Below, piece after piece: positions 3,618 to 23,248 of a stretch of 64,000 bases of DNA. A model generated the notes under the pieces. It was not told where the DNA came from and searched no databases. It worked only from the letters and a program-made list of their open reading frames with translations. The stretch is from a virus. A program made the translations under genes and the position numbers. The number at the start of each line of letters is the position of its first letter. Within the stretch, counting starts at the first letter, position 1. Location: IMG/VR virus record IMGVR_UViG_3300045988_159959. One strand, given 5' to 3'.

Positions 3618-6025
3618 TGTTCAATACGGCTTATACCGTTCTCCTTTATTATTTTAAGTGTTTTACACTTAGCGTTTTCATTCGAAATATGGGTAGTAAC
3701 CAAAATAGGATACTGAATAAATTCCAATGCTTCGATCACATCATACAGACTTTCTTTCGATAACCCTTCTGTGATTTCATCAATGGATAGGAATTGTAAG
3801 CCTCCCCATCTGTTTGTTTCGTTTATCATATTCTGGATAGCGATAATAAGAGCTATTTCTACCCTTGCACGCTCGCCACCACTGTAGTACCAAAAGTTTT
3901 CTGCTTCGTCCCGGACGACATACGGAGTTATTTCTTCTTTGATATCTCCGTCCGCTTTTGTCTTAAATCCTTCTATTAAGATACGAAGGTCGCTATTTTC
4001 TGCTTTCAGGATATTGTTCGCTCTTGATTGAATATTTTTCAACTGTTCCAACGCAAGGTACATTTTGAAAGACTTAAACCTACCGATCCATTCTTTTTTC
4101 TTGAATAGAAGGGCATCCAAATCGGAAAGCTCTTTGTCGTATCCGGCAATCGAAAGCATAGTGTCCTCTATTTGTTTTTCTTGTGAAGACACATCCACTT
4201 TCGTAGCTTTTTCTTTCTTGATTTCCTTTATCTGCTTTTCATTGTCTTTGATATCGACCAAGTTGGATTCAACCTTTTCAGACAAAGATTTCTTTTTTCT
4301 TTCCAAAAAAGAAATGGTACTTTTAGTCTGTTCAATATCATCATTGATCTTGTAAAGAGAAGTATTGATTTCTTGTGCCGACTGACGAATCTTGTCGATT
4401 TCATCTTCTTGTTCGTTTTTCAATTGAATGAAAGAAGAAATAAGTTCTTCATATTCTTTCAAAGATTCGTCCAAGGATTCCATCTCGGTAACAACTTCCT
4501 TCTCCTGTTTTCCTATTTTCACCTTCTTCTTTTCTTCCTGTTCCAGTGTAGTGTCTTTCAGTGTAAGGAATTTGTGCTTACATTTTGGGCAAGTAATCGC
4601 ACCGGATAAGTTTACAAGGACTTTTCTAAGGGACACTTTCAGTTCATCATGAATTTTTGAAAGTTCTTCTTTCATTTCCAACACTTCATTCTGATTTGCT
4701 TTTGTTTCCCCCAATTCCTTTTTAACAGATTCAATCACTTCCTGAATTTCTTTGGTAGAAGGAAGTTGGTTTTTCTTCTTTTCTTCTTCTTTTAAAAGAG
4801 CTTCCAGTTCTTCCAAAGTGGAATTATTTTCCTTGATGCTTTTGTCTGCACGACCAATTTCATACCGGAAAGAATCAATTTCTTCTTTCAGAGATTTTAT
4901 CATACCTTCTCTTTTTTCGATACGAAATAGTTTGTCGGCTTCAAAGTCAAAATTGGCAGCATCTTCTATTACCTGTTTTAGTGCCTCTATACTACCTTCC
5001 GCACGATCCTTTTTGCTTTGAATAGCAAGTTTTTGAGAAGATAAAGTATCCAGTTCTTTTTGAATGATATCTTTTGTTCCGTCCAAAAAGTCGTAATTAA
5101 TAAACCGGCTGATAAGAGCCAACTTATCCGTATTGGAGCTTTTAAAGAACGATTTGTAGTATTCCTTACAAATAAGGAAATAGCTTTTCAAATCTTCCGG
5201 AGAAATAGCGATCCAAGAAAGGATATAGTTATTCCCATCTTTTACGGTAGCAAGTTCTACCGGTTTACCGTTCAAAGACACATTTAGTTTACTGCTTCCT
5301 TTTAAGGGCAAAATGCGCTCGATAGAGAGAGTTTCTTTTCTTATTGGACACTCTATATCTAAAGAAACTTTTGCTTCCTTCTCACCCCTTCTAATGAGCT
5401 TTTTATCCACACTGCTTCGGTAATTGTTCCCGGTAACGGCAAAATAGACAGCTTGCTGCATGGATGAATTATGGGTAGGAATGTAGTTGTTTGTAACAAA
5501 CATACCGTCTTCACTGGAAACAGTTATGCACTGTTGTTCTTCCGCACCCAAACAAGTGAAGGCAATCATCTTTCGGGAAGGTTTACTCAAGCATTCCGGC
5601 ACTTCAAAAAAGACTTCTTCGTCTTTCGATCTTTTCATGATTTCTTCAAGCGAGATTACATACCAGTCTTCGCCTTTATGCAAACGTACTTTCCATAAGT
5701 GACTTCTGTTGCATTTGACTTCCGTCCCGTCAGAAAATGTAATCTTATAGGCAATGTCAATGTCATGGAAAGGAATAGCTCTTACCACTTGATACGCACC
5801 GGAAGGATGAAGGATAACATCTCCTACCTTTATTTCTCTCATTTTTACAAACCCATTAGGAGTAAGGATGTCTGCATCCATTGTTAAGGCTTTCCCGCTA
5901 CCATTACTTCCTTGATTGTCGTCTGTTTTATTTAACCCTACAAGTGCAGTTACCCCATCTTGAAATTCGTATTTAAAGTGTTCAAATGACACGAAATTTG
6001 TTGCTTCAATTCTAATCGGCTTCAT
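3614..6025 (-). CDS. Rad50/SbcC/T4 gp46-like recombination ATPase, interrupted by a mini-intein in the Walker A loop
   Basis: Walker A GSNGSGK / S is split by the insert. Long coiled coil with a CPKC zinc hook (AITCPKCKHKF), signature YSGGERARV, Walker B LQFLSIDEITEG, H-loop VTTHIS. I chose the start at ATG 6023-6025 (MKPIRIEATNF); the longer track ORF start at 6100 overlaps the recA-like gene. Confidence 0.8.
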   Translation of the reverse strand: MKPIRIEATNFVSFEHFKYEFQDGVTALVGLNKTDDNQGSNGSGKALTMDADILTPNGFVKMREIKVGDVILHPSGAYQVVRAIPFHDIDIAYKITFSDGTEVKCNRSHLWKVRLHKGEDWYVISLEEIMKRSKDEEVFFEVPECLSKPSRKMIAFTCLGAEEQQCITVSSEDGMFVTNNYIPTHNSSMQQAVYFAVTGNNYRSSVDKKLIRRGEKEAKVSLDIECPIRKETLSIERILPLKGSSKLNVSLNGKPVELATVKDGNNYILSWIAISPEDLKSYFLICKEYYKSFFKSSNTDKLALISRFINYDFLDGTKDIIQKELDTLSSQKLAIQSKKDRAEGSIEALKQVIEDAANFDFEADKLFRIEKREGMIKSLKEEIDSFRYEIGRADKSIKENNSTLEELEALLKEEEKKKNQLPSTKEIQEVIESVKKELGETKANQNEVLEMKEELSKIHDELKVSLRKVLVNLSGAITCPKCKHKFLTLKDTTLEQEEKKKVKIGKQEKEVVTEMESLDESLKEYEELISSFIQLKNEQEDEIDKIRQSAQEINTSLYKINDDIEQTKSTISFLERKKKSLSEKVESNLVDIKDNEKQIKEIKKEKATKVDVSSQEKQIEDTMLSIAGYDKELSDLDALLFKKKEWIGRFKSFKMYLALEQLKNIQSRANNILKAENSDLRILIEGFKTKADGDIKEEITPYVVRDEAENFWYYSGGERARVEIALIIAIQNMINETNRWGGLQFLSIDEITEGLSKESLYDVIEALEFIQYPILVTTHISNENAKCKTLKIIKENGISRIEQ
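5468..5890 (-). mobile_element. class 3 mini-intein (141 aa, no endonuclease domain) in the Rad50-like P-loop
   Basis: The insert ALTMDADILTPNG...IPTHN lies between NGSGK and S. Ala at position 1; block B SHLW (Trp two residues after His); block F QQCITV (Cys in place of the usual Asp); block G THN then Ser+1. Together this is the WCT triplet of class 3 inteins. Confidence 0.7.
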
Positions 6026-7094
6026 TTTCTTCTTCCTTGTTTTCAAATGTTGTTTCTTTCTTTCTGAACGTATCAAGAACGTCCTTTTTGATCTTTTCAA
6101 ACAGTTTTGTGTCTTCCAAAAGGCGTTTTCTTGCTTTCGGGAACCCGAATCCTATTTTTTCTTCCCCATAATAGATGTAGGTTCCCTTTTTGGAAAGCAC
6201 ACTCAAATCAAGTCCCATATTTACAATTTCCATCACCTTGTCAATACCTACCCCAAACCGGATAATGATTTGACAAGTTTTAAAAGGCGGTGCAACCTTA
6301 TTCTTTTTACAGGTTATTTTCACCTTATTGGAAACTTGCGTTTCCCCTTCCTTTTCCGATCCCACACGAGCAAGTTCAATTCTCTGACTTGCATAGAAAG
6401 GGATAGCAAAACCTCCCGGTGTTGTGGTGGCTGCGCCATATCCACCTATATTAGATCGGATTTGATTGATACAAAAAAGAATACATCCGGTCTGCTTACA
6501 GATATTTTTCAAAATATTTACCTGGGAACTTAAAAGGCGTGCCGTAAGCCCTATATGTGCGTCCCCTGCTTCTCCATTCAAAAGAGCGGTAGGAACAAGA
6601 CCGGCAATAGAATCAATCACAACAAGACCAATAGATTCTTCATTGCACATTTCCTTTGCTATTTCAAGCACTTCTTCTGCGGTAGAAGGTTGGGAAAGGA
6701 TAAACTTGTCAGGGGACAAATCAATTCCTATTGCTTGCATGTATTTTGGGTCAACAGCGTTTTCCGTATCAAGATACCCTACTGCTTTCCCTGATTTCTG
6801 CATTTCTGTTACCAAGTGAAAAGCAATGCTTGTCTTGCCGGAAGAAAAACCTCCATAGGCTTCCACAACACGACCTTTTGCCCATCCTCCACCAAGTATT
6901 TCATCCAGCAAATAAGAACCGGAATGAACAAACTCAACATCTTGCCTTCTTCCGGCTATAGCATCCTTACCAAAACGATCTTCTATTCTTGAAATAAGAT
7001 CGCCCAAACGATTAGGTTTTTTGACTTCTACAGGTTGTTCTTCTGTTACCGTCTGGACTTCTTCTACCTTTTTAGTTTCCTTCTTTTTCGACAT
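6012..7094 (-). CDS. recA: RecA-family recombinase
   Basis: GGWAKGRVVEAYGGFSSGKTSIAFH (RecA Walker A context) and GLVVIDSIAGLVP (Walker B); 360 aa. Confidence 0.8.
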   Translation of the reverse strand: MSKKKETKKVEEVQTVTEEQPVEVKKPNRLGDLISRIEDRFGKDAIAGRRQDVEFVHSGSYLLDEILGGGWAKGRVVEAYGGFSSGKTSIAFHLVTEMQKSGKAVGYLDTENAVDPKYMQAIGIDLSPDKFILSQPSTAEEVLEIAKEMCNEESIGLVVIDSIAGLVPTALLNGEAGDAHIGLTARLLSSQVNILKNICKQTGCILFCINQIRSNIGGYGAATTTPGGFAIPFYASQRIELARVGSEKEGETQVSNKVKITCKKNKVAPPFKTCQIIIRFGVGIDKVMEIVNMGLDLSVLSKKGTYIYYGEEKIGFGFPKARKRLLEDTKLFEKIKKDVLDTFRKKETTFENKEEENEAD

Positions 7095-8127
7095 ACAGCA
7101 ATTTGTTTAAAATTTCCTTTCCCTCTTTTTCGTCATATCCGTTTTCTTTACAGAAAGACGAAAATCTATCTTCTATGTCCTTTGTTTCCAAAGTCTTCAC
7201 TTCTACAGTAGGAGCAAGGACTTCCTTTATTTCAATTTCCTTGAATTTCTTTTTGATATCCACACCTTCTTTTGTAAAAGCATCTTTATCAAAAGCATCA
7301 AGTGAAGATTGCTCTCCCCAAACCTCTACCCTTACACGAGCGGTAGGGTTTTCTTTCTTGAACTTGTTAATAAGTGCCACCGCTTGCTTGTGTGGTGTTT
7401 CTTCTAAGTCAATTTCCAGTTTTTTGAATACTGTCCCTTTTGTGGAAGGGATAAGATCGACTTCCAAATCAGAATCCAGAAGCCAAAAACCCTTCTTTTC
7501 ATCTTCCCCAAAATTGTTCTGTTGGACACTTCCCAAATGGTAAATGTTACTACCTACGCGTTGGTAATTATGATAGTGTCCTAAATACACTTTTTTGAAC
7601 ATCTCAAACATGGAAGGCTTTAGTTCACTTTTTACTTCTGTTCCGTCCATGTTTTTACTACCGGTTACAGCAAAATGCCCAAATAGGATATTCTTCTTTC
7701 TCTTGTCCCCGATTTCTGCCAATTCGTCAAGTAAAATGTCATCAGTGAAAAATGGCAGGAAAAAGCAATAAACCCCTTCTATCTGCATACCGTCCAATTC
7801 TTCCACCAAAGTAAAAGAAGGATGATGTTTAAAGGCTGTAAGAAATGACTTTTGACTTGAATAGGATGTTTTGTCATGATTACCGGGAATACAAACTATT
7901 TGATGTCCGTTTTCATCATACGCTTCCAGTATTTCATGAAGTGTAGAAAGGCATACTTCCCTTTGAGATACCCTGTTGTCAAAAACATCACCCAGCCAGA
8001 TATGAGTTTTAATACCCTTTTTGTCGGCTATATCCATTTCTTCCAATAAAATATCTTTTATGGTAGAAGCGTTTCCCTCTGACAGATGATGGTCGGTTGA
8101 GATTATAGCTAAATATTTTTTGCTCAT
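7072..8127 (-). CDS. sbcD: Mre11/SbcD/T4 gp47-like nuclease
   Basis: Calcineurin-type phosphoesterase motifs STDHH, LGDVFD, IPGNHD, GHFAV, GHYH. Overlaps the recA-like start by 23 nt. Confidence 0.75.
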   Translation of the reverse strand: MSKKYLAIISTDHHLSEGNASTIKDILLEEMDIADKKGIKTHIWLGDVFDNRVSQREVCLSTLHEILEAYDENGHQIVCIPGNHDKTSYSSQKSFLTAFKHHPSFTLVEELDGMQIEGVYCFFLPFFTDDILLDELAEIGDKRKKNILFGHFAVTGSKNMDGTEVKSELKPSMFEMFKKVYLGHYHNYQRVGSNIYHLGSVQQNNFGEDEKKGFWLLDSDLEVDLIPSTKGTVFKKLEIDLEETPHKQAVALINKFKKENPTARVRVEVWGEQSSLDAFDKDAFTKEGVDIKKKFKEIEIKEVLAPTVEVKTLETKDIEDRFSSFCKENGYDEKEGKEILNKLLYVEKEGN

Positions 8128-9679: not shown

Positions 9680-10210
9680 TTATTTCTCTTTTATGATTAA
9701 AAATGTGTTGATCTCACCTTCTACCAGATTGTCCAGAAATTCTTCCGGTGTCACCTTCGGAACCAACCCTGTCAATTTCTTGTCCTTTGACTGTAAAGCC
9801 CAATAGAGACTGTCTATTTCCGCCAAATGCTTTTTCTTTTTGACCAAATCCTTTTGCATGGCATGTAGTTCCGGGTTGATTGTCAAAATATCGTCCAAAG
9901 AACTTTCCGTAAGTTTCACAAGTCCTATGTCTTCTACCTTCACCTTTCCACCGTTTACAATAGATTCACGTCTTATCTGTGTGGCAAGTTGCGCTTTATA
10001 GACATTAAATTCCACTTTTGCAGATTCATATTCCGATTCTGCTTGTGACCTAAGAAGCCCTACTTTATTCAGTAAGACGGAACAAGTAGCGATTTCTCCA
10101 TATAAATTAGCGTGATCTATGGAAGTTACTGCGTCCATGTCCAATTCGTTTTTCAAATCATTGGAGAGTAAAACTATTGCTTTATCTCCTATATTTCTTA
10201 CCAATTTCAT
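9680..10210 (-). CDS. hypothetical protein (176 aa)
   Basis: Track ORF with a 4-nt overlap with the upstream DnaE-C ORF. Confidence 0.55.
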   Translation of the reverse strand: MKLVRNIGDKAIVLLSNDLKNELDMDAVTSIDHANLYGEIATCSVLLNKVGLLRSQAESEYESAKVEFNVYKAQLATQIRRESIVNGGKVKVEDIGLVKLTESSLDDILTINPELHAMQKDLVKKKKHLAEIDSLYWALQSKDKKLTGLVPKVTPEEFLDNLVEGEINTFLIIKEK

Positions 10211-13101
10211 ACCCCAAGTTTTATGAATTTACTATTACTGTTTACTTGCAATACATATTCTTCTTTGAACTTGTCAAAGTTAGCCTTTCCGCTTAATAGG
10301 AGAAGGTTTTTCTTTGTGGACTGAAAGAACTCTGCGTTTTCCTCATAATCGTCCGGGAAAATGACTACACGAAGGAACTTGTAATTGCTTTCAAGCAAAA
10401 GATTGGCAAACCGTCCTTTCTTTCCTTCTCTTTCTTCCACTTCTAAAACGTAACCGCCTACCATAACCATTTCATAGGTTGATCCGTCATAGTTCTGCAA
10501 ATCTTCCACATTGTAGAAAACCCCATTTTTGACTTTTGGTTTTAAATATTCTCTTACCAGCTCTTCATAGTCGAAGAAAGCAAATCCGGACTTGTTCTTT
10601 TGCTGCAATAGCCACCACCAATCCTTACCAATCTTTTTCTTTTCAAAGGCAAGAAAATATTCATCCTTTTCTTTATCAATTTTGATCTTATTCTTTTCTC
10701 GGCACTTTCCAAGCATGAACTCCCTTGCAGAAAAGATATTGGAAAATTCCCTTGTTTCATCCATCATATCGAACGCACCAGAATAGATAAGATTTTCAAT
10801 AACGGATTTATTCACTGCCGATCCTTTGAACGTATGACGATCAATAAATTCAGCCAAAGAAAAATACTCCCCATTTTTAGAGCGTTCTTCCATAATCTGA
10901 TTCTGTGCCTTTTCTCCTACTTGTTTTGTTGCATTGATTGCCCAATAGATACTATTATCTTTTTTGTCAGCCACAATGTTTATATCAGACTTGTTGATAT
11001 TTACAGGTTTGATTTCGATCCCTTCTGTCTGCTGCATTTCATTGACGTATTGAGGAAAGTCATCTTCACTTGCACGGGACAGAGCAACCGACCAAAATTC
11101 CAAAGGATAATGCACTTTCAGCCATAAAGAATTGTAAGCATTAATAGCGTAACTTGCTGAATGACTGTTACATGTTATAATCCCTTGATCTGTACAATAA
11201 TTATGATTCGGATCATCTATTTCCACATCGTAAACATTTTCTATTTTATCCAGTTCAATACTTACTATTTTCGATAAAGCAGATGGATATCCTTTCTCAC
11301 CTCTTTTCATCCTGCCAAATTCACGATAATGAATTTTCTTGTGACAAGAAGGACAGATAGCAATAAGATTTTCATCTTCATTATTTCTCCTGTTCCCGTC
11401 TCTATGGTGAATTTCCAATCTGCCTTCTTTCCCACAATTTTTACAAACTCCAAATCCACCATTTTTCTCTCTGAAAGATCCAAACTTAGAAGATTCTCCA
11501 TTTGTTTTTACAAAACCCATGTGTCCTTTTTTAGAGTTTAAAGATTCCGGATTGTATTTACTCCAATTTTTACCCCTCATATCGGTAAAATTGTATCGCT
11601 GACTATCCGTTTTCTCATACGGCATTTGCACATACAGATTATCTTCTCCTACTCTCAAATCTTTGCACATAACTTTACCTCTTTGAGTAGGGAATTTATG
11701 GTTGTCTGTTACAGATACAAAACGACCGTCCTCTAAAGTTATTTTATAAGTTTGCCTTACCCCAGCAAACCTAATATCTTTAATTTTTCGATCTCTTATA
11801 CGTCCATCTTCACACATAGTAAGACAAGTTCCATAGCCAACTCTCAAATATTTACTCCTAAGAGGAGTCCAATTGTTTGCTTTTGCAAATGCAAGATCGT
11901 TCTTAATCAAATACATTTCTTCGATAGTAGGTTGTCTTTTGTTTTTGGGACAAGAGTTTCTTAAAATTCTGTAACTGCCTGATATACAGCGGTTAAAAGC
12001 ATACAAACCAAATTTTTCCATCTGTTTCCAGAGTGCTTCTGCGCTTTCTTTCGTTACCCCTTTTGAAGCAAATCTCTTTACATACCCATCCACAAATTTA
12101 GGATGAATTTTCTCTACTTTGTCCTTCTTTTTTTTTGCAATTGCAGCACGAGCAACATCTGCTTCTTCTTCCGAAAAACCAGCAAGAACTTGCACCATTT
12201 TAACGATCTGTTCTTGGTATACTTGCACAGAATAAGTATTTTTCAGAATTTCTTCCGCTCCAATAGGGTATTCCGGCTCTTTTTCTCCGTTTTTCAAAGC
12301 AATGTAGTCCATGTGAAAACCATTTTCCATTGGCCCGGGACGGAACAAGGAAAGTGCTGCCACTACATCATCCATGTTTTTAGGCTTCAATTTTTGAGTA
12401 TAAGCGCACAATCCTTTTGCTGAAAACTGAAATATATCGCTAAGCCAACCGTTTGCAAAATATCTGTAAACCTCTGGATCATCATATTCTATATCAGAAT
12501 AGAGATTGATTTTCCTACCCGTATTCTTTTCAATCAGATTCAGAATATCAGTGAATTTGTCCAATTGCTCAATACCAAGAATATCTTCTTTCAAAAAACC
12601 GGCTTCGTCCATTTCTCCACCTTCCCATTCACTGACAATTAAATCGCCTGATTTTCTAACCGGACACCACTCATACATTGTCTTTTCTTTTGGAAAGATC
12701 ATCATAGCACAAGCATGAATAGAAGCTGCCTTTTGTTGTCCAAGAAGAAGAAAAACAATATTCATCATTTCTGGATATTTATTCAGAAATTGATTTACTT
12801 CTGACTTCTTGCAAGCAAGTTTCAAAAAATCTTCTTCTGTCTTTACATCTTCTATCATTTTAGTAAGCCTCCTAAGAGTAGGAATTGAGACTCCATAGAG
12901 CTTTCCTACATCGTTTATAGCCTGTTTTATCTGTAAAGTGGTATATGTACCCACAGAACAAACTTGCGAAGCTCCAAAACGATTTTCCATATATTGTTTT
13001 ACTGCCGGTCGGTATTCTCCCGGCACATCTGTATCAATGTCTAACGCTCCCCCTTGTCCGAAAACAAGGGGGAAATTGATCGGGGAGCGATCCCGGTACA
13101 A
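10207..13101 (-). CDS. dnaE: DNA polymerase III alpha (DnaE-type), C-terminal piece (palm/fingers/OB), carrying an HNH intein
   Basis: Palm catalytic DIDTD (aa 21-25), LFRPGPM, VYQEQIV; FN-R / intein / SHSASYAINAYNSLWLKVHYPLEFW. The start codon is TTG (13099-13101), 7 nt downstream of a GAGGTG SD-like motif, with an in-frame TAG at 13114-13116. The first in-frame ATG is codon 38, after the catalytic motif. Confidence 0.85.
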   Translation of the reverse strand: MYRDRSPINFPLVFGQGGALDIDTDVPGEYRPAVKQYMENRFGASQVCSVGTYTTLQIKQAINDVGKLYGVSIPTLRRLTKMIEDVKTEEDFLKLACKKSEVNQFLNKYPEMMNIVFLLLGQQKAASIHACAMMIFPKEKTMYEWCPVRKSGDLIVSEWEGGEMDEAGFLKEDILGIEQLDKFTDILNLIEKNTGRKINLYSDIEYDDPEVYRYFANGWLSDIFQFSAKGLCAYTQKLKPKNMDDVVAALSLFRPGPMENGFHMDYIALKNGEKEPEYPIGAEEILKNTYSVQVYQEQIVKMVQVLAGFSEEEADVARAAIAKKKKDKVEKIHPKFVDGYVKRFASKGVTKESAEALWKQMEKFGLYAFNRCISGSYRILRNSCPKNKRQPTIEEMYLIKNDLAFAKANNWTPLRSKYLRVGYGTCLTMCEDGRIRDRKIKDIRFAGVRQTYKITLEDGRFVSVTDNHKFPTQRGKVMCKDLRVGEDNLYVQMPYEKTDSQRYNFTDMRGKNWSKYNPESLNSKKGHMGFVKTNGESSKFGSFREKNGGFGVCKNCGKEGRLEIHHRDGNRRNNEDENLIAICPSCHKKIHYREFGRMKRGEKGYPSALSKIVSIELDKIENVYDVEIDDPNHNYCTDQGIITCNSHSASYAINAYNSLWLKVHYPLEFWSVALSRASEDDFPQYVNEMQQTEGIEIKPVNINKSDINIVADKKDNSIYWAINATKQVGEKAQNQIMEERSKNGEYFSLAEFIDRHTFKGSAVNKSVIENLIYSGAFDMMDETREFSNIFSAREFMLGKCREKNKIKIDKEKDEYFLAFEKKKIGKDWWWLLQQKNKSGFAFFDYEELVREYLKPKVKNGVFYNVEDLQNYDGSTYEMVMVGGYVLEVEEREGKKGRFANLLLESNYKFLRVVIFPDDYEENAEFFQSTKKNLLLLSGKANFDKFKEEYVLQVNSNSKFIKLGV
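11167..11988 (-). mobile_element. intein (274 aa) with an HNH endonuclease domain in DnaE
   Basis: Starts CISGSYRIL directly after FNR; block B VTDNHKF; HNH CKNCGKEGRLEIHHRDGNRRNNEDENLIAICPSCHKKIH; ends VYDVEIDD..GIITCN followed by S(HSASY). Removing it restores the conserved FN(K/R)SHSA motif. Confidence 0.8.
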
Positions 13102-13170
13102 ATCGCTCCACCTCTATTTCTTTAATTTTTTCTATTTTCATATACCAAAATATATTAAAATTAATAAAAA

Positions 13171-14400
13171 CTATTCATTTTCTTTAATACACATAGGATG
13201 TCTCTTCCCTCTGCATAATTTGATTTTCCTATACGAAGCATCTTTTGGATTATTCCCTTCGATATCCCGGATATTGAAACTACCTGTTTTTCTTCTACCA
13301 TATATAAACATTATTTTATTGTTATATAATACTTTATCAAATAAACGAAATCCAAAAACCTCAAATGGAGATTGATTCATACGTTTCAATCCTCCCTTCT
13401 GAATCTTTATTTTATGAATCTGGCGATTATGTCTTCTAATCAATTTTATCCTATAAAGGCAATTAATTCTATCAGCTTCGAAGTTCTTGGATATAATAAA
13501 AGCATCAGATGCATGAGATTTCTTTATGTTATGAATTATACGGTTGTGTTTCGTTACATAACCGTATGTCATGAATACGTTTGGATACAAACCTTTTAAA
13601 CAATCACACAACCTCCATCTCATTATCCCCATTACGGCAGCGTCGCGAAGCGACTTGCCTCTCCGTATCTTCAAGTCTATCTTACCTTTATGATAATCAT
13701 CATGACATGTCTCACATAAGGTTATTAAATTGGATGGAGAATCACCACCGGTTTTCCTTGATTCAATATGATGAACGTTAAGGACCTTGTTTTTTGACTT
13801 ACCCTTGCAATGACAGCATTTGTGACCATCACGGTATAAGACATATTCCCTTACGTTCCAAAAACCAAGTTGTTCTCCTTCTTGATATAATTTACCCTCT
13901 ATGTCAGGATTCTTGATCTTTTGTGTATCAAATTGAGCTACTTCAATAACGAGGCGAGTAATTGGCAAAATAGAATACACATTTTGAATAACGCGAATAT
14001 GAGCGTCTATCTTGTTCTGCACCGAAGGTGCTAACCATCCTTCACGTTTTGATTTTATCCTATTATCAAAACGAGGTTTTCTATACCTCAATCTTGACCG
14101 CCTTGTCCGTCTTAGCTCTCTCCTTGTAGACAAAAGATCTACCATATCACTTCTCAGAGTCACTTCACTCGCATAAAGCTCTTTGCTTTTCGTCGTTGCT
14201 GACAAACCAACATGTTTGGTTCCGGCATCAACGCCTAACGTAATTTCTTGTTTGTAACTATCGGATATGTACGTCAATCGGATGGTAAACGGACATAGGT
14301 TTACAACGACCGCCTGTTTTGTTTTAAGCAGTCTCCTAACCTTTCCATGCCTTGTTGTTGGCATAAGCGGTTTACCTTCTATGTTCTGTACATACACCAT
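13171..14400 (-). CDS. iscB: IscB RNA-guided nuclease (409 aa; PLMP-RuvC-bridge helix-HNH-RuvC)
   Basis: GKPLMPT (PLMP domain), LGVDAGTKHVGLS (RuvC-I, D58), RRELRRTRRSRLRYRKPRF (Arg-rich bridge helix), LVIEVAQFD (RuvC-II, E153), CCHC..NVHHIESRK..SNLITLCETCHDDYH (HNH), KSHASDAF (RuvC-III). C-terminal FEVFGFRLFDKVLYNNKIMFIYGRRKTGSFNIRD resembles a target-interaction domain. Confidence 0.88.
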   Translation of the reverse strand: MVYVQNIEGKPLMPTTRHGKVRRLLKTKQAVVVNLCPFTIRLTYISDSYKQEITLGVDAGTKHVGLSATTKSKELYASEVTLRSDMVDLLSTRRELRRTRRSRLRYRKPRFDNRIKSKREGWLAPSVQNKIDAHIRVIQNVYSILPITRLVIEVAQFDTQKIKNPDIEGKLYQEGEQLGFWNVREYVLYRDGHKCCHCKGKSKNKVLNVHHIESRKTGGDSPSNLITLCETCHDDYHKGKIDLKIRRGKSLRDAAVMGIMRWRLCDCLKGLYPNVFMTYGYVTKHNRIIHNIKKSHASDAFIISKNFEADRINCLYRIKLIRRHNRQIHKIKIQKGGLKRMNQSPFEVFGFRLFDKVLYNNKIMFIYGRRKTGSFNIRDIEGNNPKDASYRKIKLCRGKRHPMCIKENE

Positions 14401-14709
14401 TATTCACAAACAACATAATGTTTATTCAACATAAGTCAGGATAAAAATCCTGTTAGTACCCATCGCCAATGTTATCAAAGGTTTGTTGTAAGCAACACTG
14501 TTTCCCAAATACAAAAACTGTTTAATCACTTACCTTAGAACTACAGACTTGGGCAAATATCCGTAGGTAACTATCTATTCTTTAATAACGTAGTTCTTGT
14601 TTCAGAACTTAGGCTAATAACCAGATCCGATTTTACGGATGTATTAAAATGGGATAATGATTTTATCTGATTTTAATACTATTTGCGGTTATATTCTTGT
14701 TACTTGATA
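14401..14709 (-). ncRNA. candidate IscB omega-RNA (guide plus scaffold)
   Basis: A 309-nt ORF-free region immediately 5' of iscB, where IscB loci encode the omega-RNA. Several helices are visible: 14641-14650/14670-14679 (10 bp, perfect), 14625-14629/14636-14640, 14590-14597 pairing with either 14604-14609 or 14537-14544, 14484-14488/14493-14497, and 14437-14442/14447-14452. Exact ends were not determined. Confidence 0.55.
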
Positions 14710-16263
14710 TTAGACTAAAATGTCATCTCCTACTTTCAACGCTTTAGTTGTTATATTGATAGGAAGGATTTTCTTTTTCCCGTCTGCAAGAGTTACCTCA
14801 TACATCTTTTTCTTTTCAAAATGTCCTAATCGTCCTCTTGTCAAAAATCTTTCAAAAAGTAAGTTAAACTTCAAAGGATGTGTATTTATGATACCAAAAA
14901 GATAAGAAATTAAAGAACCGCTTGCACTTCCGCGACCCGCACCTAACAAAATGTTATTCTTTTTACACCAATTGACAATATCACGCAAAATCAAAAAGTA
15001 ATCCACAACATCACCAAACTTAATAATCTTAGATTCTCTTTCGATCCTTTCCACAAGCACATCTTCCGAGTAATCTTCCAAAAGTTCCGGTTTGTTCTCC
15101 AACCCTTCATAAATCAAAGAATCAAACATATCTTCATTGGAAGTGTATTTTTTCTTTTCTTCTTTTGTCATTTCATAACGGGGAAGATGTCGACTGTCAG
15201 TAGGAATTTCAAAGTTGCAATTTTCCGCAATCATATCAGCGTTAGTCCTTGCTACCATATAAAATTCCTCCCCTCTTTCACTATCCCCGAACAAAGAAAG
15301 AAGTTCTTCCATGTAAGTCGCTTCATCTTTGAAATACTGATTGCCGGATTTGTAGTTTACTTTCCCGTCAATCTTATTTACGACTTCCCGAAGTATGGCA
15401 TATTCCGGCTCAATATAATAAGCATCACAAATAGCTACGGGCTTCATTTTGGACTTATAGAACTGTTCAAAGTTCATCAAATAGAAGGTATCCCTATCGT
15501 TCTTTGTGTATTTCACGGTATCTACTTGCCAAAACACATTGGGTTTGTTTCTCAAAAGGATAGGAACATCTTCAAGCTGTATTGTTTTTGGATCGAATAC
15601 AATGTACACATCTGAAACATGTTCCGACATGTCTTTTGGAGAAACGAATTTTCCATTATCACCACAGTTCAAAATCTTGTTTAATGCAAGCAAATGCTGC
15701 CAGCCCTTTTCATTCTTTGCATAGACTTTGTAAGTATAGACAATATCCTTCTTTTCATCCTTTACCGGGACTTCCAGACCAAACACAGGGATGATTCCTT
15801 CTGCCTTGCAAGCGTTTTGAAATTTGAGCGCACCTGCCAAAGTTGCTTTTTCAACAATCCCCAATCTTTCTATTCCTAAGAATTTGGCTTTCTTTACCCA
15901 ATCCGGGTACAATCCCGTACCATTCAAAAGTTCAAACGATCCATGTACTCCCAAAAAATTAGTGGAAAGACCTGCCATTTCACTTTGTCCTCTCCATTTT
16001 ACCCGGTTAAGTTTAGGCTCGTTTTCCTTCCCTTTGTCCAATGTGTACCATACACCACCAAGACGAAAGATGTAACCATCTTCTTCGGTGCGTTCACAAT
16101 CCCAACGAAAATCCTCTGAAAAGAAATATCCATCTTCGTTAGGCTCAAAAACTTCGTATGATTTTCCCTCAAAGAAAACAGTGTAATTTTCTTTGTCGAG
16201 AGAGTATTGTATGGTATTGGAAGAAAGGTATTCTTCCAACTCATTTAAAAGTCGATCCATCAT
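14710..16263 (-). CDS. dnaE: DNA polymerase III alpha (DnaE-type), N-terminal piece (PHP domain and start of palm)
   Basis: PHP-like FLGVHGSFELLNG..AKFLGIERLGIVEKATLAG..IIPVFGLEV; GAGRGSASGSLISYLFGI; LLFERFL, followed by a 39-aa non-DnaE tail and a TAA stop. Confidence 0.85.
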   Translation of the reverse strand: MMDRLLNELEEYLSSNTIQYSLDKENYTVFFEGKSYEVFEPNEDGYFFSEDFRWDCERTEEDGYIFRLGGVWYTLDKGKENEPKLNRVKWRGQSEMAGLSTNFLGVHGSFELLNGTGLYPDWVKKAKFLGIERLGIVEKATLAGALKFQNACKAEGIIPVFGLEVPVKDEKKDIVYTYKVYAKNEKGWQHLLALNKILNCGDNGKFVSPKDMSEHVSDVYIVFDPKTIQLEDVPILLRNKPNVFWQVDTVKYTKNDRDTFYLMNFEQFYKSKMKPVAICDAYYIEPEYAILREVVNKIDGKVNYKSGNQYFKDEATYMEELLSLFGDSERGEEFYMVARTNADMIAENCNFEIPTDSRHLPRYEMTKEEKKKYTSNEDMFDSLIYEGLENKPELLEDYSEDVLVERIERESKIIKFGDVVDYFLILRDIVNWCKKNNILLGAGRGSASGSLISYLFGIINTHPLKFNLLFERFLTRGRLGHFEKKKMYEVTLADGKKKILPINITTKALKVGDDILV

Positions 16264-18002: not shown

Positions 18003-19007
18003 CTACCACATTTTCTTGATTTTAGAGACGTAAAAATTAATAGGATCATACAAGTTACTTAACACATCGTCCAGATAATCCATATCCATATCTCCCGGAT
18101 CAATACCGGGCTTATAAAGATAAGCTATCTTAGTGTTGAATGTTTTTGCAAGCATTAGTCCTGCACTTTTGGATTCTTCAACAGTTGCATCATCATACAT
18201 CAAGATCACATTCTCTACTCCTTTTCTTTCCAAATAGGATATTTGTTCCTTGCTTATACTGTTTCCAAAAGTAAACACACACTTCAAATCCCTGCAATCC
18301 CAAAGTTTTAAAAGATTATCTATACCTACCTTGTCAAACAATCCTTCTACTATTATCACATCTTTTACAGCAGGAGAAAGCTCATTGTAACCACCTAATA
18401 TTTTTGTAAAGTTCGTGCCTATACTGTTTTCGTACCGTAAATGCGGCTTAGTTCCGGTTTCTTTTGCCCTCTCCAAGTCTCTTTTATGCCACTCTTTAGA
18501 ATGCCTGCTTCTACCGAGCCACCCTACCAACTTATCATCCATTTTCATTTTAAAAATGATGTAGTTTTTCAAATCCTTCTCTAAAATAGATTTGGTTTCA
18601 GAAGGTTCAAAAAGTGCATAATGATACGCCCTAAACCCTCTTTCGTCCAAATAAGGGTCAGATTTCAGTCTTTCAAGACGAAGGGGAAGTTTTACTTCCG
18701 GCAGTTCTTCGGACACATCTTCGTCCTCATCATCTTTCAAAGGTGTAAGTTTTACACTTAATGAATTTTGATATTCCATTCGTATAAGGTCTTTCCTTCC
18801 TATCTTGTCCAGAAAATCCTTCAATGGTTTTTTGCTACCACATTTCCAACAATGAAATACTCCCCCGTGAGGATTTAAAAGAATCCCCCATTTCTTCGAC
18901 TTCCCACAATAGGGACAATCCATGTTTTTATTGGAGAGCCACCCTTGCGAACCAAACAACCGAAGTCCAATCGCTGCTTTTACTTCTTCTTCGTCTATCC
19001 GTATCAT
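18003..19007 (-). CDS. DnaG-like primase (zinc finger + TOPRIM)
   Basis: CPYCGKSKKWG..FHCWKCGSK zinc ribbon; TOPRIM-like IIVEGLFD and ILMYDDA acidic motifs. Directly downstream of the helicase. Confidence 0.65.
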   Translation of the reverse strand: MIRIDEEEVKAAIGLRLFGSQGWLSNKNMDCPYCGKSKKWGILLNPHGGVFHCWKCGSKKPLKDFLDKIGRKDLIRMEYQNSLSVKLTPLKDDEDEDVSEELPEVKLPLRLERLKSDPYLDERGFRAYHYALFEPSETKSILEKDLKNYIIFKMKMDDKLVGWLGRSRHSKEWHKRDLERAKETGTKPHLRYENSIGTNFTKILGGYNELSPAVKDVIIVEGLFDKVGIDNLLKLWDCRDLKCVFTFGNSISKEQISYLERKGVENVILMYDDATVEESKSAGLMLAKTFNTKIAYLYKPGIDPGDMDMDYLDDVLSNLYDPINFYVSKIKKMW

Positions 19008-19011
19008 AAAC

Positions 19012-20445
19012 CTAAATGCTTTCCATTTTCTCTGCTTCCGCCTTTTTCTTACGTGCCTGTTTTTTTACCTCTTTCCTTTCGGAAATTTGATTGTACATTT
19101 CCATCGTCCGCCCTCTGTGATAGAATCGTCTTTTGTCATAATTGGTAGCAATTGTAATCACTTCTTGACTTTCCTTGTAATCACGGAGCTTATCGACATA
19201 AATACGGGCTGTTGCATTTTCCTTTTCTTCTATTGTCATGTTCAAAGTAAACACAAAAGAAAAAGGCTTTACAAGCGTTTTGTCACCCTCCGTATAAGAA
19301 CGGTCAATTACCTTATCTGGATTGTTCCATACTTCAAACGGAACATCACTTGTCTGTGTGGCCGTAATAATAGGAGCACCTATTTCATCAGCCAAGTTCT
19401 TTAATAACTGGGCACAAGTCTGTAACTTTTCTTTCTTGTGGTCGGGATCGGAATCTATCTTTTTGGATATACCGGTCTTTACCAAATCCAGAGAATCGAG
19501 TATTACCAATCCGGGGAACTTGCCATGTGTATTAAAATAGTCATAACAAAGTTGCCGGACATCCCCCATAGAAGCCTGTCCGAACTTTTTAAATCCATAC
19601 ACTTCAATATCAGAACTAAGTTCCTTTACTTCTTTGATAGCCTGTTCTATCTTCTTTCTGTCCTTTGGACTGATATTGCCGGATTTAATATCGGAATAGG
19701 ATTGGGCAGACCATAATTGATCGTATATTTGCATACAGGCTTTAACGCCTCCTTCCAATTGAATATGAAGAACCGGTACACCTCTAATAGCAGCAGAATA
19801 CCCATGCCATTTTAATACACTGCTCTTACCAACTCCGCTTCGAGCAATCCAAAGAGATGTATCTCCTATTTCCATCCCACCAAAAGAAACATCATCCAAC
19901 CTATCTATTCCAAAAGGCACTTTTACGGGCTTTTCAGAGGCAATATCTCCTTCCATGCGTCTTTCTACCATCCGTTCATGAAAACCTCCAAAAACAGACT
20001 GAAAACCACCTGATTTGGAACGAAACGACATTTCCAATATCCTTTGGGATTCTTCGGCATTGACACGTATTGCTTCTTCCTTCTTTCCTTCTTCGTACAA
20101 GTCATGCACTTTTCTTGAAAGAAGTTCAAATTCTGTTTCCTTGACAAAAGACTGCAATTGGTCTATTGCAATTTCCCTATCTATCAAAGCCGCCTTCTTT
20201 ATTTCCTTTGCCGCATCTTGTACGACATCTTCATCAGCAAATTTCTGACAAATAGCACCAATAGAAGGTAACTTATTCTTTTCTGTATATTGTATGATCG
20301 CTTCCCTAAGAATGAATTTATAGCCCGACCATTCTTTAGGAATCAATTCATATTTCAAATATTCCGAAGCTATACGCATTATGACTTCATCAGAAAACAT
20401 CAATTTAAAGATTTCTGCCATGAAGCCGGGATTCAGTTTGCCCAT
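19012..20445 (-). CDS. dnaB: DnaB-family replicative helicase
   Basis: Walker A WIARSGVGKSSVL, Walker B LVILDSLDL, N-terminal helical domain; 477 aa. Confidence 0.7.
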   Translation of the reverse strand: MGKLNPGFMAEIFKLMFSDEVIMRIASEYLKYELIPKEWSGYKFILREAIIQYTEKNKLPSIGAICQKFADEDVVQDAAKEIKKAALIDREIAIDQLQSFVKETEFELLSRKVHDLYEEGKKEEAIRVNAEESQRILEMSFRSKSGGFQSVFGGFHERMVERRMEGDIASEKPVKVPFGIDRLDDVSFGGMEIGDTSLWIARSGVGKSSVLKWHGYSAAIRGVPVLHIQLEGGVKACMQIYDQLWSAQSYSDIKSGNISPKDRKKIEQAIKEVKELSSDIEVYGFKKFGQASMGDVRQLCYDYFNTHGKFPGLVILDSLDLVKTGISKKIDSDPDHKKEKLQTCAQLLKNLADEIGAPIITATQTSDVPFEVWNNPDKVIDRSYTEGDKTLVKPFSFVFTLNMTIEEKENATARIYVDKLRDYKESQEVITIATNYDKRRFYHRGRTMEMYNQISERKEVKKQARKKKAEAEKMESI

Positions 20446-20458
20446 TTCCTATATTGTT

Positions 20459-23248
20459 TTACACCATGTTTATGCTAAAACTATTGCCTGATCCGTTTTC
20501 TTCACGAAGGGTATGTATAGATAAAAAGTTTGACATCACAATGTCGTCATGTCCTGAACTCGCTTCCAATTTCCCTTTATCGCTTCTGAAAGTAACGGAT
20601 GCAAACTCACTAAACATCAACTCTATTTTTTGTCTTGTCTCCCCTTCCTTGTAAGGAACTTTAATCTGCCCTCTTTCAAACATAGCAGATAAGGATGGTA
20701 GACCGGAATAGAGGTCTTTCTTATTTCCTTCTGTTGTTGTAAACTGCTCGATATTGGAAAGCCCCCTTTCCCTTGCAAGTGCAGACAAAATTCCCTGAAA
20801 ACCATTTGATTCACATACTATTTTATCCGGTTTGTATAAGCGGTTAAAAAGAACAATCTTATCTACCTGTTCGTTATGAGACATTCCTTTCGCACGAAAA
20901 TAGTTTATCAAATAAAAATTATTCGAATAGTCGATACCCCAAACAGAATAAACAGTGTAGTCCGCACCAATATTACCGGATACAGCAAAGTCACATCCTA
21001 CCACTACTCTTTGAAGCTCAAACGGGAAAAATTCTATACTGTCAGCAAAAGAAACCTTGTCCATTCCCACAGTTGACCTTCTTAAATACTCATAAGGGAA
21101 AATGGTTGAGTTATCAGAAATAGGGATAACCAAATACTCACGAGCAAATACAATAGAACCAAGTTCTATTCTTTTTGTCTTTATATCTTCAAAGGTGTAC
21201 CTATCCGGTGCAAGTGGTCTGCCATCCGGGAAAACAATAGGATATTCAAACGAATAGAAGCGTTTATCACCTTTTATCACATTGTACAATTCATTCGGAG
21301 CAGTTGAGTAAGGTGTACCGGATACAATTAAATATCCGTATGGTTCTACAATAGGTGTAATCGTACCTCTAAAAACTTCTTTTAGTTTTTCCCTTTGCTC
21401 GTCACTATACAAAGAACTCTCGTCCGGCATATCGTCTATAATCGCCGCGCCAACGTGAAGCCCACGAATAAACCCATCCTTACCGCGAACATGAAGAATG
21501 GCTCCGTTCTCACCTTCTATCGCTGTTTCACCCAGCTTTGCTTTCCCATTCGGATCAATCTTTTCCTTTAGAATATCGTTAGTAGTGATTTCTTCTATGA
21601 TCTTGTTCACATGCACTTTTGCAAGTGTCATAGTGTTTGTGATCATAGCCGTCTCTTTCCGGTTCTTATTGTCAACCGTATCACCTCCATATAACATAGG
21701 ACGTGTGTAGGAATACAAACGCCACAAGGGGAAAGAGTAGCACCACATATAGCTGTTATGAACTACTGTACCGTCTGCAAGCAGAAACTTATGATCTCCA
21801 TCACAGGTAAAACCGTAATAGTCGTCATCACCAACTGGCGTTACCGTTAAAGATGAAACCTGCGTATCTTGAACTTGTTCTATAAATTCTACTTGCTTTC
21901 TTTTGATCTTTGTTGGCACGTTATGTAGCTTTCCAGAAATATGCAATCTATAAAAAACATAATCTTTCAAAACATATTCGCCTCTTTTTTCTGTTTTTAC
22001 TTTAATATCCTTTCTTTCTTCCGTTACGGTTTTACACCTTAAACCAAGTGACCATGCTAATTGCTGAACCTGATAAGCCAAAATTTTACTTTTAGAAGAA
22101 TATTCAAAACTTCTATTTGTTTTATTAAGTCCTTTCCTTTTGGCTCTGTCGGCATCACAACTTCCATCTGTATCTAATATTCCTGCCAATAGCTCCATTC
22201 TTTGCTGATAAGAAGCTCGCATATAAATATCCGGGATATGCTTGTTTTTTATAAGATCAAGTTCTTTCAACTCTTTGTTAAGATTGATATTTCCTTCGTG
22301 AATGGAAATAGACATCTTACTTGCTCTCGTCCCATCTTTCCAGCTTTTCACATATCCTCCAATCCTATCTGCATATCCTTTTATATATTCATATATTTCA
22401 TCATCTGGATTACAAATAACAGAATTGTCCGAATACCCATCACCCAGCCAAATTCCCAAAAAATAAGGCTCAATGGGAAGGCTCTGCTCTGGAAGTTCCC
22501 ATCCGTTTACTCTATACCCCAATACCTTCTTTTGAGAATACCCAACGTGTGTTGGTATCTTTTCAACAGGAATATCTTCATATTCAATAACGGTATGGCT
22601 ACGATATGGCTTAACTCCTTTTACTCTTTTTGTGTACCTTACTCTTGCGCAAACCAAATGACCTTCGTTTACTGTATAGGACATTGCGTAAGATTGATCT
22701 ACCCGATACATAGGTGCTCTACCTCTATGTAACTGCAATACCGTTCTTGGAGTTGAATCAACCCCCATCACCTTGTCCCCAACTTTAATATTTTGGATTT
22801 TCTCTATCGAACCATCCGCCATAACTATCGGAGTATCAATAAGATTGCACTTACCGGCTCCGCGCGCGCACAAATAACTACTCCACGGAAAGAGTTGTGT
22901 AAGGTTCCCCCATTCCAAATTTCTCCATCCTAAATTAAAATTAGAAAGGACAGTCGCATTGAAATAGTTATATGAAAGGATTCTTAGGTTTTCATCCATT
23001 GAAGCAAACAAATTATCCACATATCCCAATTTTTCAGTATCGAGAGATCGTCCAAAATTCATTGCATACTCTGTCTGATCTATAATAGTTTCAAGCATCT
23101 TGTCCATATCCCTTTTATATCCCCCTGAAAAGAGTTGAGATATAGTAGGAGAAGGAAGCCTGTCTATTATATCGTCCACAGTAGTAAACAACCTCTTTGC
23201 TTGCAAATCGGTCAGAATCCCACCTTTTGAATTATATACTATCGCCAT
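20459..23248 (-). CDS. terL: terminase large subunit, interrupted by a LAGLIDADG intein in the Walker A loop
   Basis: CARGAGK / intein / SYMW; downstream Walker B-like AAIIDDMPDE; RNase-H-like nuclease region VVGCDFAVSG..DYTV..HDDIVMS. Confidence 0.85.
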   Translation of the reverse strand: MAIVYNSKGGILTDLQAKRLFTTVDDIIDRLPSPTISQLFSGGYKRDMDKMLETIIDQTEYAMNFGRSLDTEKLGYVDNLFASMDENLRILSYNYFNATVLSNFNLGWRNLEWGNLTQLFPWSSYLCARGAGKCNLIDTPIVMADGSIEKIQNIKVGDKVMGVDSTPRTVLQLHRGRAPMYRVDQSYAMSYTVNEGHLVCARVRYTKRVKGVKPYRSHTVIEYEDIPVEKIPTHVGYSQKKVLGYRVNGWELPEQSLPIEPYFLGIWLGDGYSDNSVICNPDDEIYEYIKGYADRIGGYVKSWKDGTRASKMSISIHEGNINLNKELKELDLIKNKHIPDIYMRASYQQRMELLAGILDTDGSCDADRAKRKGLNKTNRSFEYSSKSKILAYQVQQLAWSLGLRCKTVTEERKDIKVKTEKRGEYVLKDYVFYRLHISGKLHNVPTKIKRKQVEFIEQVQDTQVSSLTVTPVGDDDYYGFTCDGDHKFLLADGTVVHNSYMWCYSFPLWRLYSYTRPMLYGGDTVDNKNRKETAMITNTMTLAKVHVNKIIEEITTNDILKEKIDPNGKAKLGETAIEGENGAILHVRGKDGFIRGLHVGAAIIDDMPDESSLYSDEQREKLKEVFRGTITPIVEPYGYLIVSGTPYSTAPNELYNVIKGDKRFYSFEYPIVFPDGRPLAPDRYTFEDIKTKRIELGSIVFAREYLVIPISDNSTIFPYEYLRRSTVGMDKVSFADSIEFFPFELQRVVVGCDFAVSGNIGADYTVYSVWGIDYSNNFYLINYFRAKGMSHNEQVDKIVLFNRLYKPDKIVCESNGFQGILSALARERGLSNIEQFTTTEGNKKDLYSGLPSLSAMFERGQIKVPYKEGETRQKIELMFSEFASVTFRSDKGKLEASSGHDDIVMSNFLSIHTLREENGSGNSFSINMV
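21755..22849 (-). mobile_element. intein (365 aa) with a LAGLIDADG homing endonuclease in the TerL P-loop
   Basis: Starts CNLIDTPIVMADG directly after GAGK. Two LAGLIDADG motifs (YFLGIWLGDGY, ELLAGILDTDGS). Ends DGTVVHN followed by Ser+1. Confidence 0.85.

Follow-up and report, generated by a model that had tools for sequence, protein, structure and literature searches.

An IscB element between the halves of a split dnaE

The DNA analysed here, referred to below as the window, is a 64,000-nucleotide stretch (64 kb of a genome of roughly 108 kb) from a gut phage, IMG/VR record IMGVR_UViG_3300045988_159959. Between the two halves of its split dnaE, the gene for the alpha subunit of DNA polymerase III (Pol III), lies an IscB element, composed of a gene for the RNA-guided nuclease IscB and the omega RNA of an OMEGA system (short for obligate mobile element-guided activity). 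All genes of the region are on the minus strand and the features are collected in Table 1. A preliminary description of the window had proposed that IscB split an intact dnaE and that it homes into uninterrupted dnaE of co-infecting relatives. The analysis presented here points to a probable non-autonomous mobile element, with a guide that addresses the spacer of an allele that was already split, and makes homing between co-infecting phages plausible.

Table 1. Features at the split dnaE locus and repair genes of the window (positions are those of the window).
Feature	Position	Strand	Description
IscB element	13142..14692	minus	1,551 bp; contains omega RNA and iscB only
Element 3' end (left end in transposase orientation)	13142..13170	minus	terminates ...TTTTGGTAT
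Target-adjacent motif (TAM) ATGAA (TTCAT on the other strand)	13137..13141	minus	first bases of the right flank
iscB	13171..14400	minus	409 aa; PLMP, split RuvC, HNH, C-terminal TAM-interacting region
Omega RNA (HEARO) scaffold	14452..14692	minus	Rfam RF02033, P1 fold, L005 boundary and copy alignment
Predicted omega RNA guide, ATCAAGTAACAAGAAT	14693..14708	minus	phage DNA separating the element from the dnaE-N stop codon
dnaE-N	14710..16263	minus	Pol III alpha N-terminal half, PHP and start of palm; Pfam PHP, DNA_pol3_alpha positions 5-98
dnaE-N non-DnaE tail	14713..14823	minus	37 aa; not in uninterrupted alleles
dnaE-C head, MKIEKIKEIEVERFVPGSLPD	13079..13141	minus	ends SLPD, the residues preceding IDTD in uninterrupted DnaE
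Coding gap	13042..13078	minus	37 nt; 9-bp GC hairpin, 13072..13064 paired with 13057..13049
dnaE-C open reading frame (ORF)	10207..13101	minus	Pfam DNA_pol3_alpha profile positions 103-260
dnaE-C remainder	10207..13041	minus	palm, fingers, HhH, HNH-containing intein; DNA_pol3_finger, HHH_6, Intein_splicing, HNH
RecA	6012..7094		Pfam
Mre11-like phosphoesterase	7072..8127		Pfam

The protein of the element is a standard IscB nuclease with its own omega RNA. Its ORF matches the Pfam RRXRR (E 1.7e-58) and HNH domains, and solved IscB structures, 7utn and 7xht among others, match it with E values of about 1e-39 to 1e-41; these results, together with the HEARO match described below, bear out the presence of an IscB gene as first described. 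When aligned with OgeuIscB all catalytic residues are kept, namely the RuvC D58 (GVDAG), the RuvC Glu (IEVAQF), the HNH His pair H210/H211 and the RuvC-III H/D (SHASDAF), and judged by its sequence the protein looks catalytically competent.

The omega RNA lies directly upstream of iscB on the same strand. It was recognized by a match to HEARO (RF02033) at 14452..14661 (minus) that reaches 97.9 bits (gathering score 83; E 7.7e-19), and HEARO is the sole Rfam family above threshold in the entire window. We place the 5' end of the scaffold 31 nt upstream of the Rfam start on three grounds: the P1 stem folded by RNAfold, in which AUAACC (14692..14687) pairs with GGUUAU and encloses two hairpins, the HEARO architecture; the alignment with sister copies; and a relative of the element at another phage locus, L005 (L numbers are our handles for the loci compared), where the HEARO match has its start, AUAACC, precisely on the boundary of the insertion. 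The cmscan alignment misplaced the divergent 5' part of the RNA. Taking the Rfam start at 14661 as the start of the scaffold would give a guide, ATTAAAATCAGATAAA, within the insertion, and this is ruled out by empty sites, paralogues, L005 and RNAfold. When 58 scaffolds were aligned with MAFFT and folded with RNAalifold, P1 was missed, owing to the poor alignment of the 5' hairpins; a listing of P1 covariation came from a search that required pairing and is only suggestive.

Boundaries of the element

The boundaries were fixed twice independently, by empty alleles of relatives and by paralogous copies. Empty alleles read ...CAAGAAT|ATGAAAAT..., or in full GTC TAA T ATCAAGTAACAAGAAT ATGAAAATAG..., where TAA is the dnaE-N stop codon (14710-14712), and homology with the window resumes at 13141. 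The window equals the empty allele on both sides apart from the 1,551 bp between ...AAGAAT and ATGAAAAT; the junction is ambiguous by 2-4 nt of AT and there is no target duplication. The copies in L083 and L085, which lie in unrelated phage contexts, are 95.4% and 96.4% identical to the window element over 1,562 nt, and their similarity to it begins and stops at the same two points.

The TAM of the window, ATGAA, is the reverse complement of TTCAT, the experimentally determined TAM of the Geobacillus IscB (GstIscB) (PMC10055086). ATGAA also stands after the copies in L083, L085 and L079, and ATGAT after that in L005; the five sites all have ...AT|AACC on one side of the insertion and ATGA(A/T) on the opposite side. 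At the window's own site the dnaE-C reading frame opens with the first three TAM bases, 13141..13139, as its start codon.

The guide and its targets among relatives

The predicted guide consists of 16 nt of phage DNA that lie outside the element and abut its boundary on the 5' side, as anticipated in the preliminary description, which had expected it to derive from flanking DNA. Within the window its perfect match is unique, at its own locus, with no second target. The comparison set consisted of at least 75 IMG/VR loci; the related gut phages that they come from are about 100 kb in size. Four dnaE alleles can be distinguished among these loci: one that is uninterrupted, one split around a 17-nt spacer that is empty, one split with an ORF of 290 aa in the spacer, and one split with IscB, the last in the window only (L088 and L089, which are IscB-occupied, are 100% identical to it). 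In 10 of 75 relatives the guide matches the empty dnaE spacer at 16/16 positions, followed by ATGAA in nine and by ATGGA in one; three more match with one mismatch, and all matches are at the dnaE spacer. No match was found across the 75 relatives in uninterrupted alleles, in divergent split alleles (L029 type) or in those occupied by a homing endonuclease gene (HEG). The guide therefore does match an empty site beside a TAM, which was the central prediction made for this locus. Where IscB occupies the spacer, ATAAC and not the TAM comes after the guide match, and the carrier should therefore be immune. A further variant was seen in L010, where a 17-nt insertion (TTTTTTATTCCCCTTTA) at about 7540-7560 alters the C-terminus at the end of the DnaE-N tail and leaves the IscB target downstream intact.

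In its guide and empty-site part the earlier homing hypothesis thus stood; the parts in which IscB split dnaE and the uninterrupted allele is the target did not. The version in which the insertion broke an intact dnaE and the guide aims at the uninterrupted allele draws on the position of IscB between the two dnaE halves, and we consider it refuted for practical purposes. The same split, with tail, spacer and start codon, occurs without IscB in 28 IMG/VR contigs, removal of the element restores the split-empty allele and not an intact dnaE, and uninterrupted alleles hold no guide match; what the guide does match is a 17-nt spacer, in an allele that had been split beforehand. The 37-aa tail, the spacer and the downstream start codon are shared even by L075 and L076, phages that are only 37-38% identical.

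The dnaE slot and its other occupants

In split alleles the DnaE-N tail is conserved and its changes are mostly synonymous. A 17-aa head of DnaE-C (13091-13141, minus), which is not in uninterrupted DnaE, is conserved at the protein level along with the DnaE-N tail, again even in L075 and L076. We ruled out that the split was caused by a group I intron or by a split intein, because the tail shows synonymous-site variation without intein motifs; the Hint blocks (Cys/Ser1, TxxH, HN then Cys/Ser/Thr) are absent, the tail (37 aa) and the head (17 aa before SLPD) being too short for them. By analogy with the mobE-split NrdA of phage Aeh1, both may be interaction tails (PMC3045599).

In relatives the slot between the halves holds free-standing HEGs (phrog_314), at L001 8520-9392, L013 7561-8433, L070 4567-5412 and L076 6066-6695. 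Against the PHROG "homing endonuclease" family the 290-aa slot ORF gives 6.9e-13, and a 209-aa slot ORF with a clear GIY-YIG motif gives 1e-30; the slot of L075 holds a 79-aa ORF. Empty, HEG-occupied and IscB-occupied alleles all occur at this one site among close relatives.

Other insertions were observed within dnaE. The dnaE-C intein of the window (~11167-11814, minus) is polymorphic: it is shared by L008, L009, L035 and L041, many relatives lack residues 380-645, and others have a different, smaller intein. About 1 kb is inserted within dnaE-N between residues 445 and 446 in L057 (2107-3109) and L058 (7333-8335), and loci of the L013 and L019 types have an insert of about 1.1 kb near DnaE-C residue 299. 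There are therefore at least four insertion hot spots in the dnaE of this phage group. Elsewhere in the window the large terminase subunit (20459-23248, minus) contains a Hint and LAGLIDADG intein (Pfam Hom_end_hint 8e-22), and Pfam thus confirms the inteins first described for this genome, LAGLIDADG in the terminase and HNH in dnaE-C.

Mobility without a transposase of its own

Among 30 further ORFs of the window none has a Pfam match to Y1_Tnp, and tblastn with the TnpA proteins of IS608 and IS200 gave no match there. The earlier observation of iscB without TnpA is thus upheld within the window, and the element is therefore non-autonomous. This is the usual state of such loci, as only about 1.5% of iscB genes have tnpA nearby and about 98.5% of loci are without it (PMC10055086). 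The further step, that the element is unable to transpose by the IS200/605 route, is contradicted by the 95-96% identical copies at other, unrelated sites, which indicate recent mobility. Near-identical copies, scarless TAM-adjacent junctions and guides taken from each copy's own flank are the signature of IS200/IS605 transposition in trans. Moves to new sites would need a Y1 TnpA, probably supplied by the host, and because the guide lies outside the element it would be re-programmed automatically at each new site.

Two observations on other copies belong here. L005 (1703-3260) carries a 78%-identical IscB element between a helicase stop codon and a primase ATG; there 17-19 additional nt (AGTTACCACAAATAATT) separate the ATG from the point at which the element usually ends. 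Pfam confirmed a DnaB-like helicase in the window. The window has the corresponding empty helicase/primase junction (about 19005-19030); a guide of the L005 type aimed at it has 3 mismatches, and the junction is probably no target. Some phages hold two copies of the omega RNA motif per contig (L094/L162, L117/L154, L102), which suggests transposition within a genome.

Between the window and the copies at other sites dN/dS of iscB is 0.21-0.29, and judged by this ratio the gene has been kept under purifying selection. It might be argued that the element is a decaying relic, immobile and with an inactive or unexpressed nuclease, given that the window scans found no transposase and that the Rfam alignment is poor over the 5' part of the omega RNA. 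The ORF is of full length with every catalytic residue, the dN/dS is low, the omega RNA is above the Rfam threshold with P1 intact, and the identity of the copies elsewhere speaks for recent mobility; we regard the relic as very unlikely and the element as genuine and probably active.

Our interpretation is that this is a canonical non-autonomous IS200/IS605-type (ISC) element, and that it also homes between phages, to which combined reading we would assign a probability of roughly 0.72.

Homing between co-infecting phages

Homing between co-infecting phages is plausible from the arrangement of the alleles. The element is inserted, without target duplication, between the dnaE-N stop and the dnaE-C ATG; an older homing endonuclease cassette would have split the dnaE of this phage beforehand. 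Read-through transcription from dnaE-N would yield the omega RNA, IscB with this RNA would cut the empty spacer of a co-infecting relative (an L004-type phage), and RecA-dependent repair from the IscB-carrying genome, over repair arms that are 92-98% identical, would copy the element in, as a homing reaction or gene drive, while the carrier itself, its TAM gone, would be protected. As for the repair enzymes that had been listed for this genome, Pfam confirmed RecA and an Mre11-like protein; Rad50, SSB and a RuvC-like enzyme were not confirmed by Pfam. That OMEGA elements may home into co-infecting phages is an idea already in the literature, under the name "transposon non-restorative homing", with co-infecting phages or plasmids as the recipients (PMC13565253).

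A simpler account would treat the element as a plain passenger insertion sequence (IS), placed by a host TnpA, in which IscB only restores the element after excision on a sister genome, with no spread of note between different phages. The anatomy and TAM are those of a canonical IS605 element, the mechanism has been shown for Geobacillus IscB and TnpB (PMC10055086), and the occupied allele comes from one strain only. Set against this, no TnpA was found in the window and next to none in 2.1 Mb of IscB-bearing phage loci, and if excision does not occur IscB would have nothing to put back, while its gene shows purifying selection. Empty, susceptible alleles are in circulation among related gut phages, and a TnpA-independent gene drive of an IS605 TnpB on plasmids has been reported (Mears et al. 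2025, as cited in PMC13565253). We consider the passenger account unlikely.

It is also conceivable that IscB serves as a weapon, destroying co-infecting relatives at dnaE (marker exclusion) with copying as a by-product. Killing of competitors by HEGs is known in phages (PMC13565253), and the target here is inside an essential replication gene cluster. The predicted cut, on the other hand, falls in the non-coding 17-nt spacer between arms of an identity ideal for repair and copying, and members of the family target whichever spacer received them and not particular essential genes, which makes the weapon improbable.

Several points weigh against an element that is moved in trans and homes between phages. 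The homing step is one that we infer from sequence, and both the guide length and the 5' end of the omega RNA are predictions from the folding and alignment described above. The end of the element on the transposase side has only a weak AT hairpin (fold z = 0.5); hairpins on the guide side are strong as DNA (z = -5.4) but coincide with omega RNA structure. No source of TnpA was found, the sole Y1-transposase-like signal in the 2.1 Mb of phage loci being one weak match (E 1e-4; L148 2476-2583), at the edge of its locus and about 1.7 kb from an omega RNA. Nor did the bacterial reference genomes searched contain a close IscB homologue: homologues of at least 75% identity are on phage-sized contigs only, the best in the bacterial genomes are 54-59% identical, and they therefore give no pointer to a host or to a TnpA source. 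Finally, the IscB-occupied dnaE allele was seen in one strain only and IscB is in 0/28 of the split IMG/VR alleles, so that spread across genetic backgrounds has not yet been seen; a metagenome scan for the right junction returned nothing, from a collection that evidently lacks even L089, a contig of the HMP (Human Microbiome Project).

A TAM that overlaps start codons

Over 120 phage contigs in IMG/VR contain the conserved 3' motif of this omega RNA. Most full copies have, within 17-50 nt beyond the IscB stop codon, the ATG of an ORF in the same orientation, the criterion being at least 50 codons; as a rule the ORF extended as far as the extracted segment did (about 100 codons or more). The motifs at these downstream starts were ATGAA (17), ATGGA (7), ATGTA (6) and ATGTT (6). 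Mapping of boundaries from the ends of BLAST alignments for 82 family members proved too noisy for a TAM logo and the downstream ORF starts were used instead. As read from these sequences, the TAM of this IscB clade overlaps start codons, and an insertion therefore leaves the downstream ORF and its ATG intact. This may explain how such elements are tolerated in compact phage genomes.

A coding gap in dnaE-C

The downstream half of dnaE contains a second peculiarity. Uninterrupted alleles read ...FERFLNKGRVKV-SLPD-IDTDVPGEYRP, and the heads of L075 and L076 (MKIVKIVESLKPKLVGGSLPDIDTDF), homologous to that of the window, run directly into DIDTDF and are continuous with DnaE-C; the ATG at 13141, and not the TTG at 13101, is therefore the ancestral start of dnaE-C. 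In the window the head is separated from the remainder by a gap of 37 nt, after which GAC ATT GAT ACA GAT (DIDTD) follows in the +1 frame, with translation from 13041 giving DIDTDVPGEYRP. The gap is present in 29/29 split alleles examined, the window included, and absent from uninterrupted and distant split alleles; a 36-nt variant occurs at two loci that are 100% identical and count as one observation. Its hairpin folds with z = -4.7. We ruled out that this hairpin is a dispersed mini-element, as it is present only at this locus in IMG/VR.

The gap is flanked by Asp codons, GAT (13081..13079) and GAC (13041..13039). TAA stands directly after the take-off GAT in 14/28 tabulated alleles, a second hairpin ends 2 nt before the GAT, and a GGAG is placed 5 nt ahead of the landing codon. 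Skipping from GAT over the 37 nt to GAC or GAT would restore SLPD-IDTD. The arrangement makes the gap a tentative candidate for a translational bypass like that of gene 60, to which we give somewhat under an even chance; the alternatives are an in-frame internal start at the TTG (13101) or a +1 frameshift. If the bypass were true, the dnaE gap would be the second natural translational bypass system.

A wider view can be stated, and we hold it to be doubtful. The IscB clade would be an essentially phage-only, RNA-guided homing endonuclease whose start-codon TAM (ATGA) lets it slip harmlessly into compact genomes. In the window it would have colonised the slot of an older GIY-YIG-type cassette that split dnaE, and the 37-nt gap left by that cassette would be a second natural bypass, without sequence similarity to gene 60.

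Comparison with known systems

The dnaE context, as distinct from IscB, is best compared with the mobA and gene 60 of phage T4 with its 50-nt bypass, the mobE-split nrdA of Aeh1 and other 'fractured genes' (PMC2677866, PMC3045599, bioRxiv 10.1101/2022.08.31.505936). Shared features are an essential gene cut by a HEG cassette, new tails on both halves, a slot that is either empty or filled by a HEG, and a short insert of non-coding DNA immediately within the downstream half. Known homologues of the T4 mobA/gene 60 cassette are all in topoisomerase genes (bioRxiv 10.1101/2022.08.31.505936), whereas here the gene is dnaE, the HEG is of the GIY-YIG type, the gap is 37 nt long and flanked by Asp and not Gly codons, and there is no sequence similarity to gene 60. 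The dnaE tails are without intein catalytic residues, and bypassing here is a candidate.

With regard to the nuclease, the window IscB and OgeuIscB with its omega RNA (PDB 7utn, 7xht) have in common the domain order, the catalytic residues and an omega RNA of the HEARO type. OgeuIscB has 496 aa as against 409 aa, identity is about 30-40% over the aligned parts, and the C-terminal TAM-reading region of the window protein does not align with OgeuIscB, the TAMs of the two being different. Another comparison is with ISGst5, an IscB element from Geobacillus stearothermophilus (Meers et al. 2023, PMC10055086), likewise of IS605 type and without a tnpA of its own. Both elements have the omega RNA upstream of iscB, a guide beyond the element end, the TAM TTCAT and a guide-end motif that differs from the TAM at two positions, and their catalytic numbering is close (D58 and H209/H210 in ISGst5 IscB, D58 and H210/H211 here). 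ISGst5 resides in a bacterial chromosome, while the window element is in a lytic-type gut phage genome; unlike in ISGst5, the TAM here coincides with the start codon of a gene, a compatible TnpA was not found nearby or in related phages of the window, and activity is predicted from sequence.

The plasmid gene drive of the IS605 TnpB follows the same logic, in that an empty site on a co-resident replicon is cut and repair copies the element, independently of TnpA; that drive acts on plasmids and was shown experimentally, whereas for the phage-borne IscB of the window the case is one of sequence. RNA-guided OMEGA homing between co-resident replicons has thus been shown for TnpB on plasmids and only proposed for phages. 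The locus described here offers a natural, well-defined test case, with guide, TAM, and protected and susceptible alleles known. Both kinds of allele circulate in human-gut phages, and homing endonucleases that work by protein only make use of the slot as well.

The free-standing Seg and Mob HEGs of T4, examples of intronless homing, resemble the window element in lying between conserved phage genes, in their presence/absence polymorphism and in the predicted cut of the allele that lacks them. They recognize the target by protein, whereas the window IscB would do so by a 16-nt RNA guide and a TAM; self and non-self are set by sequence differences for Seg/Mob and here by the insertion itself, as in intron homing. 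Unlike Seg and Mob, the window element appears able to reach new sites, with automatic re-targeting.

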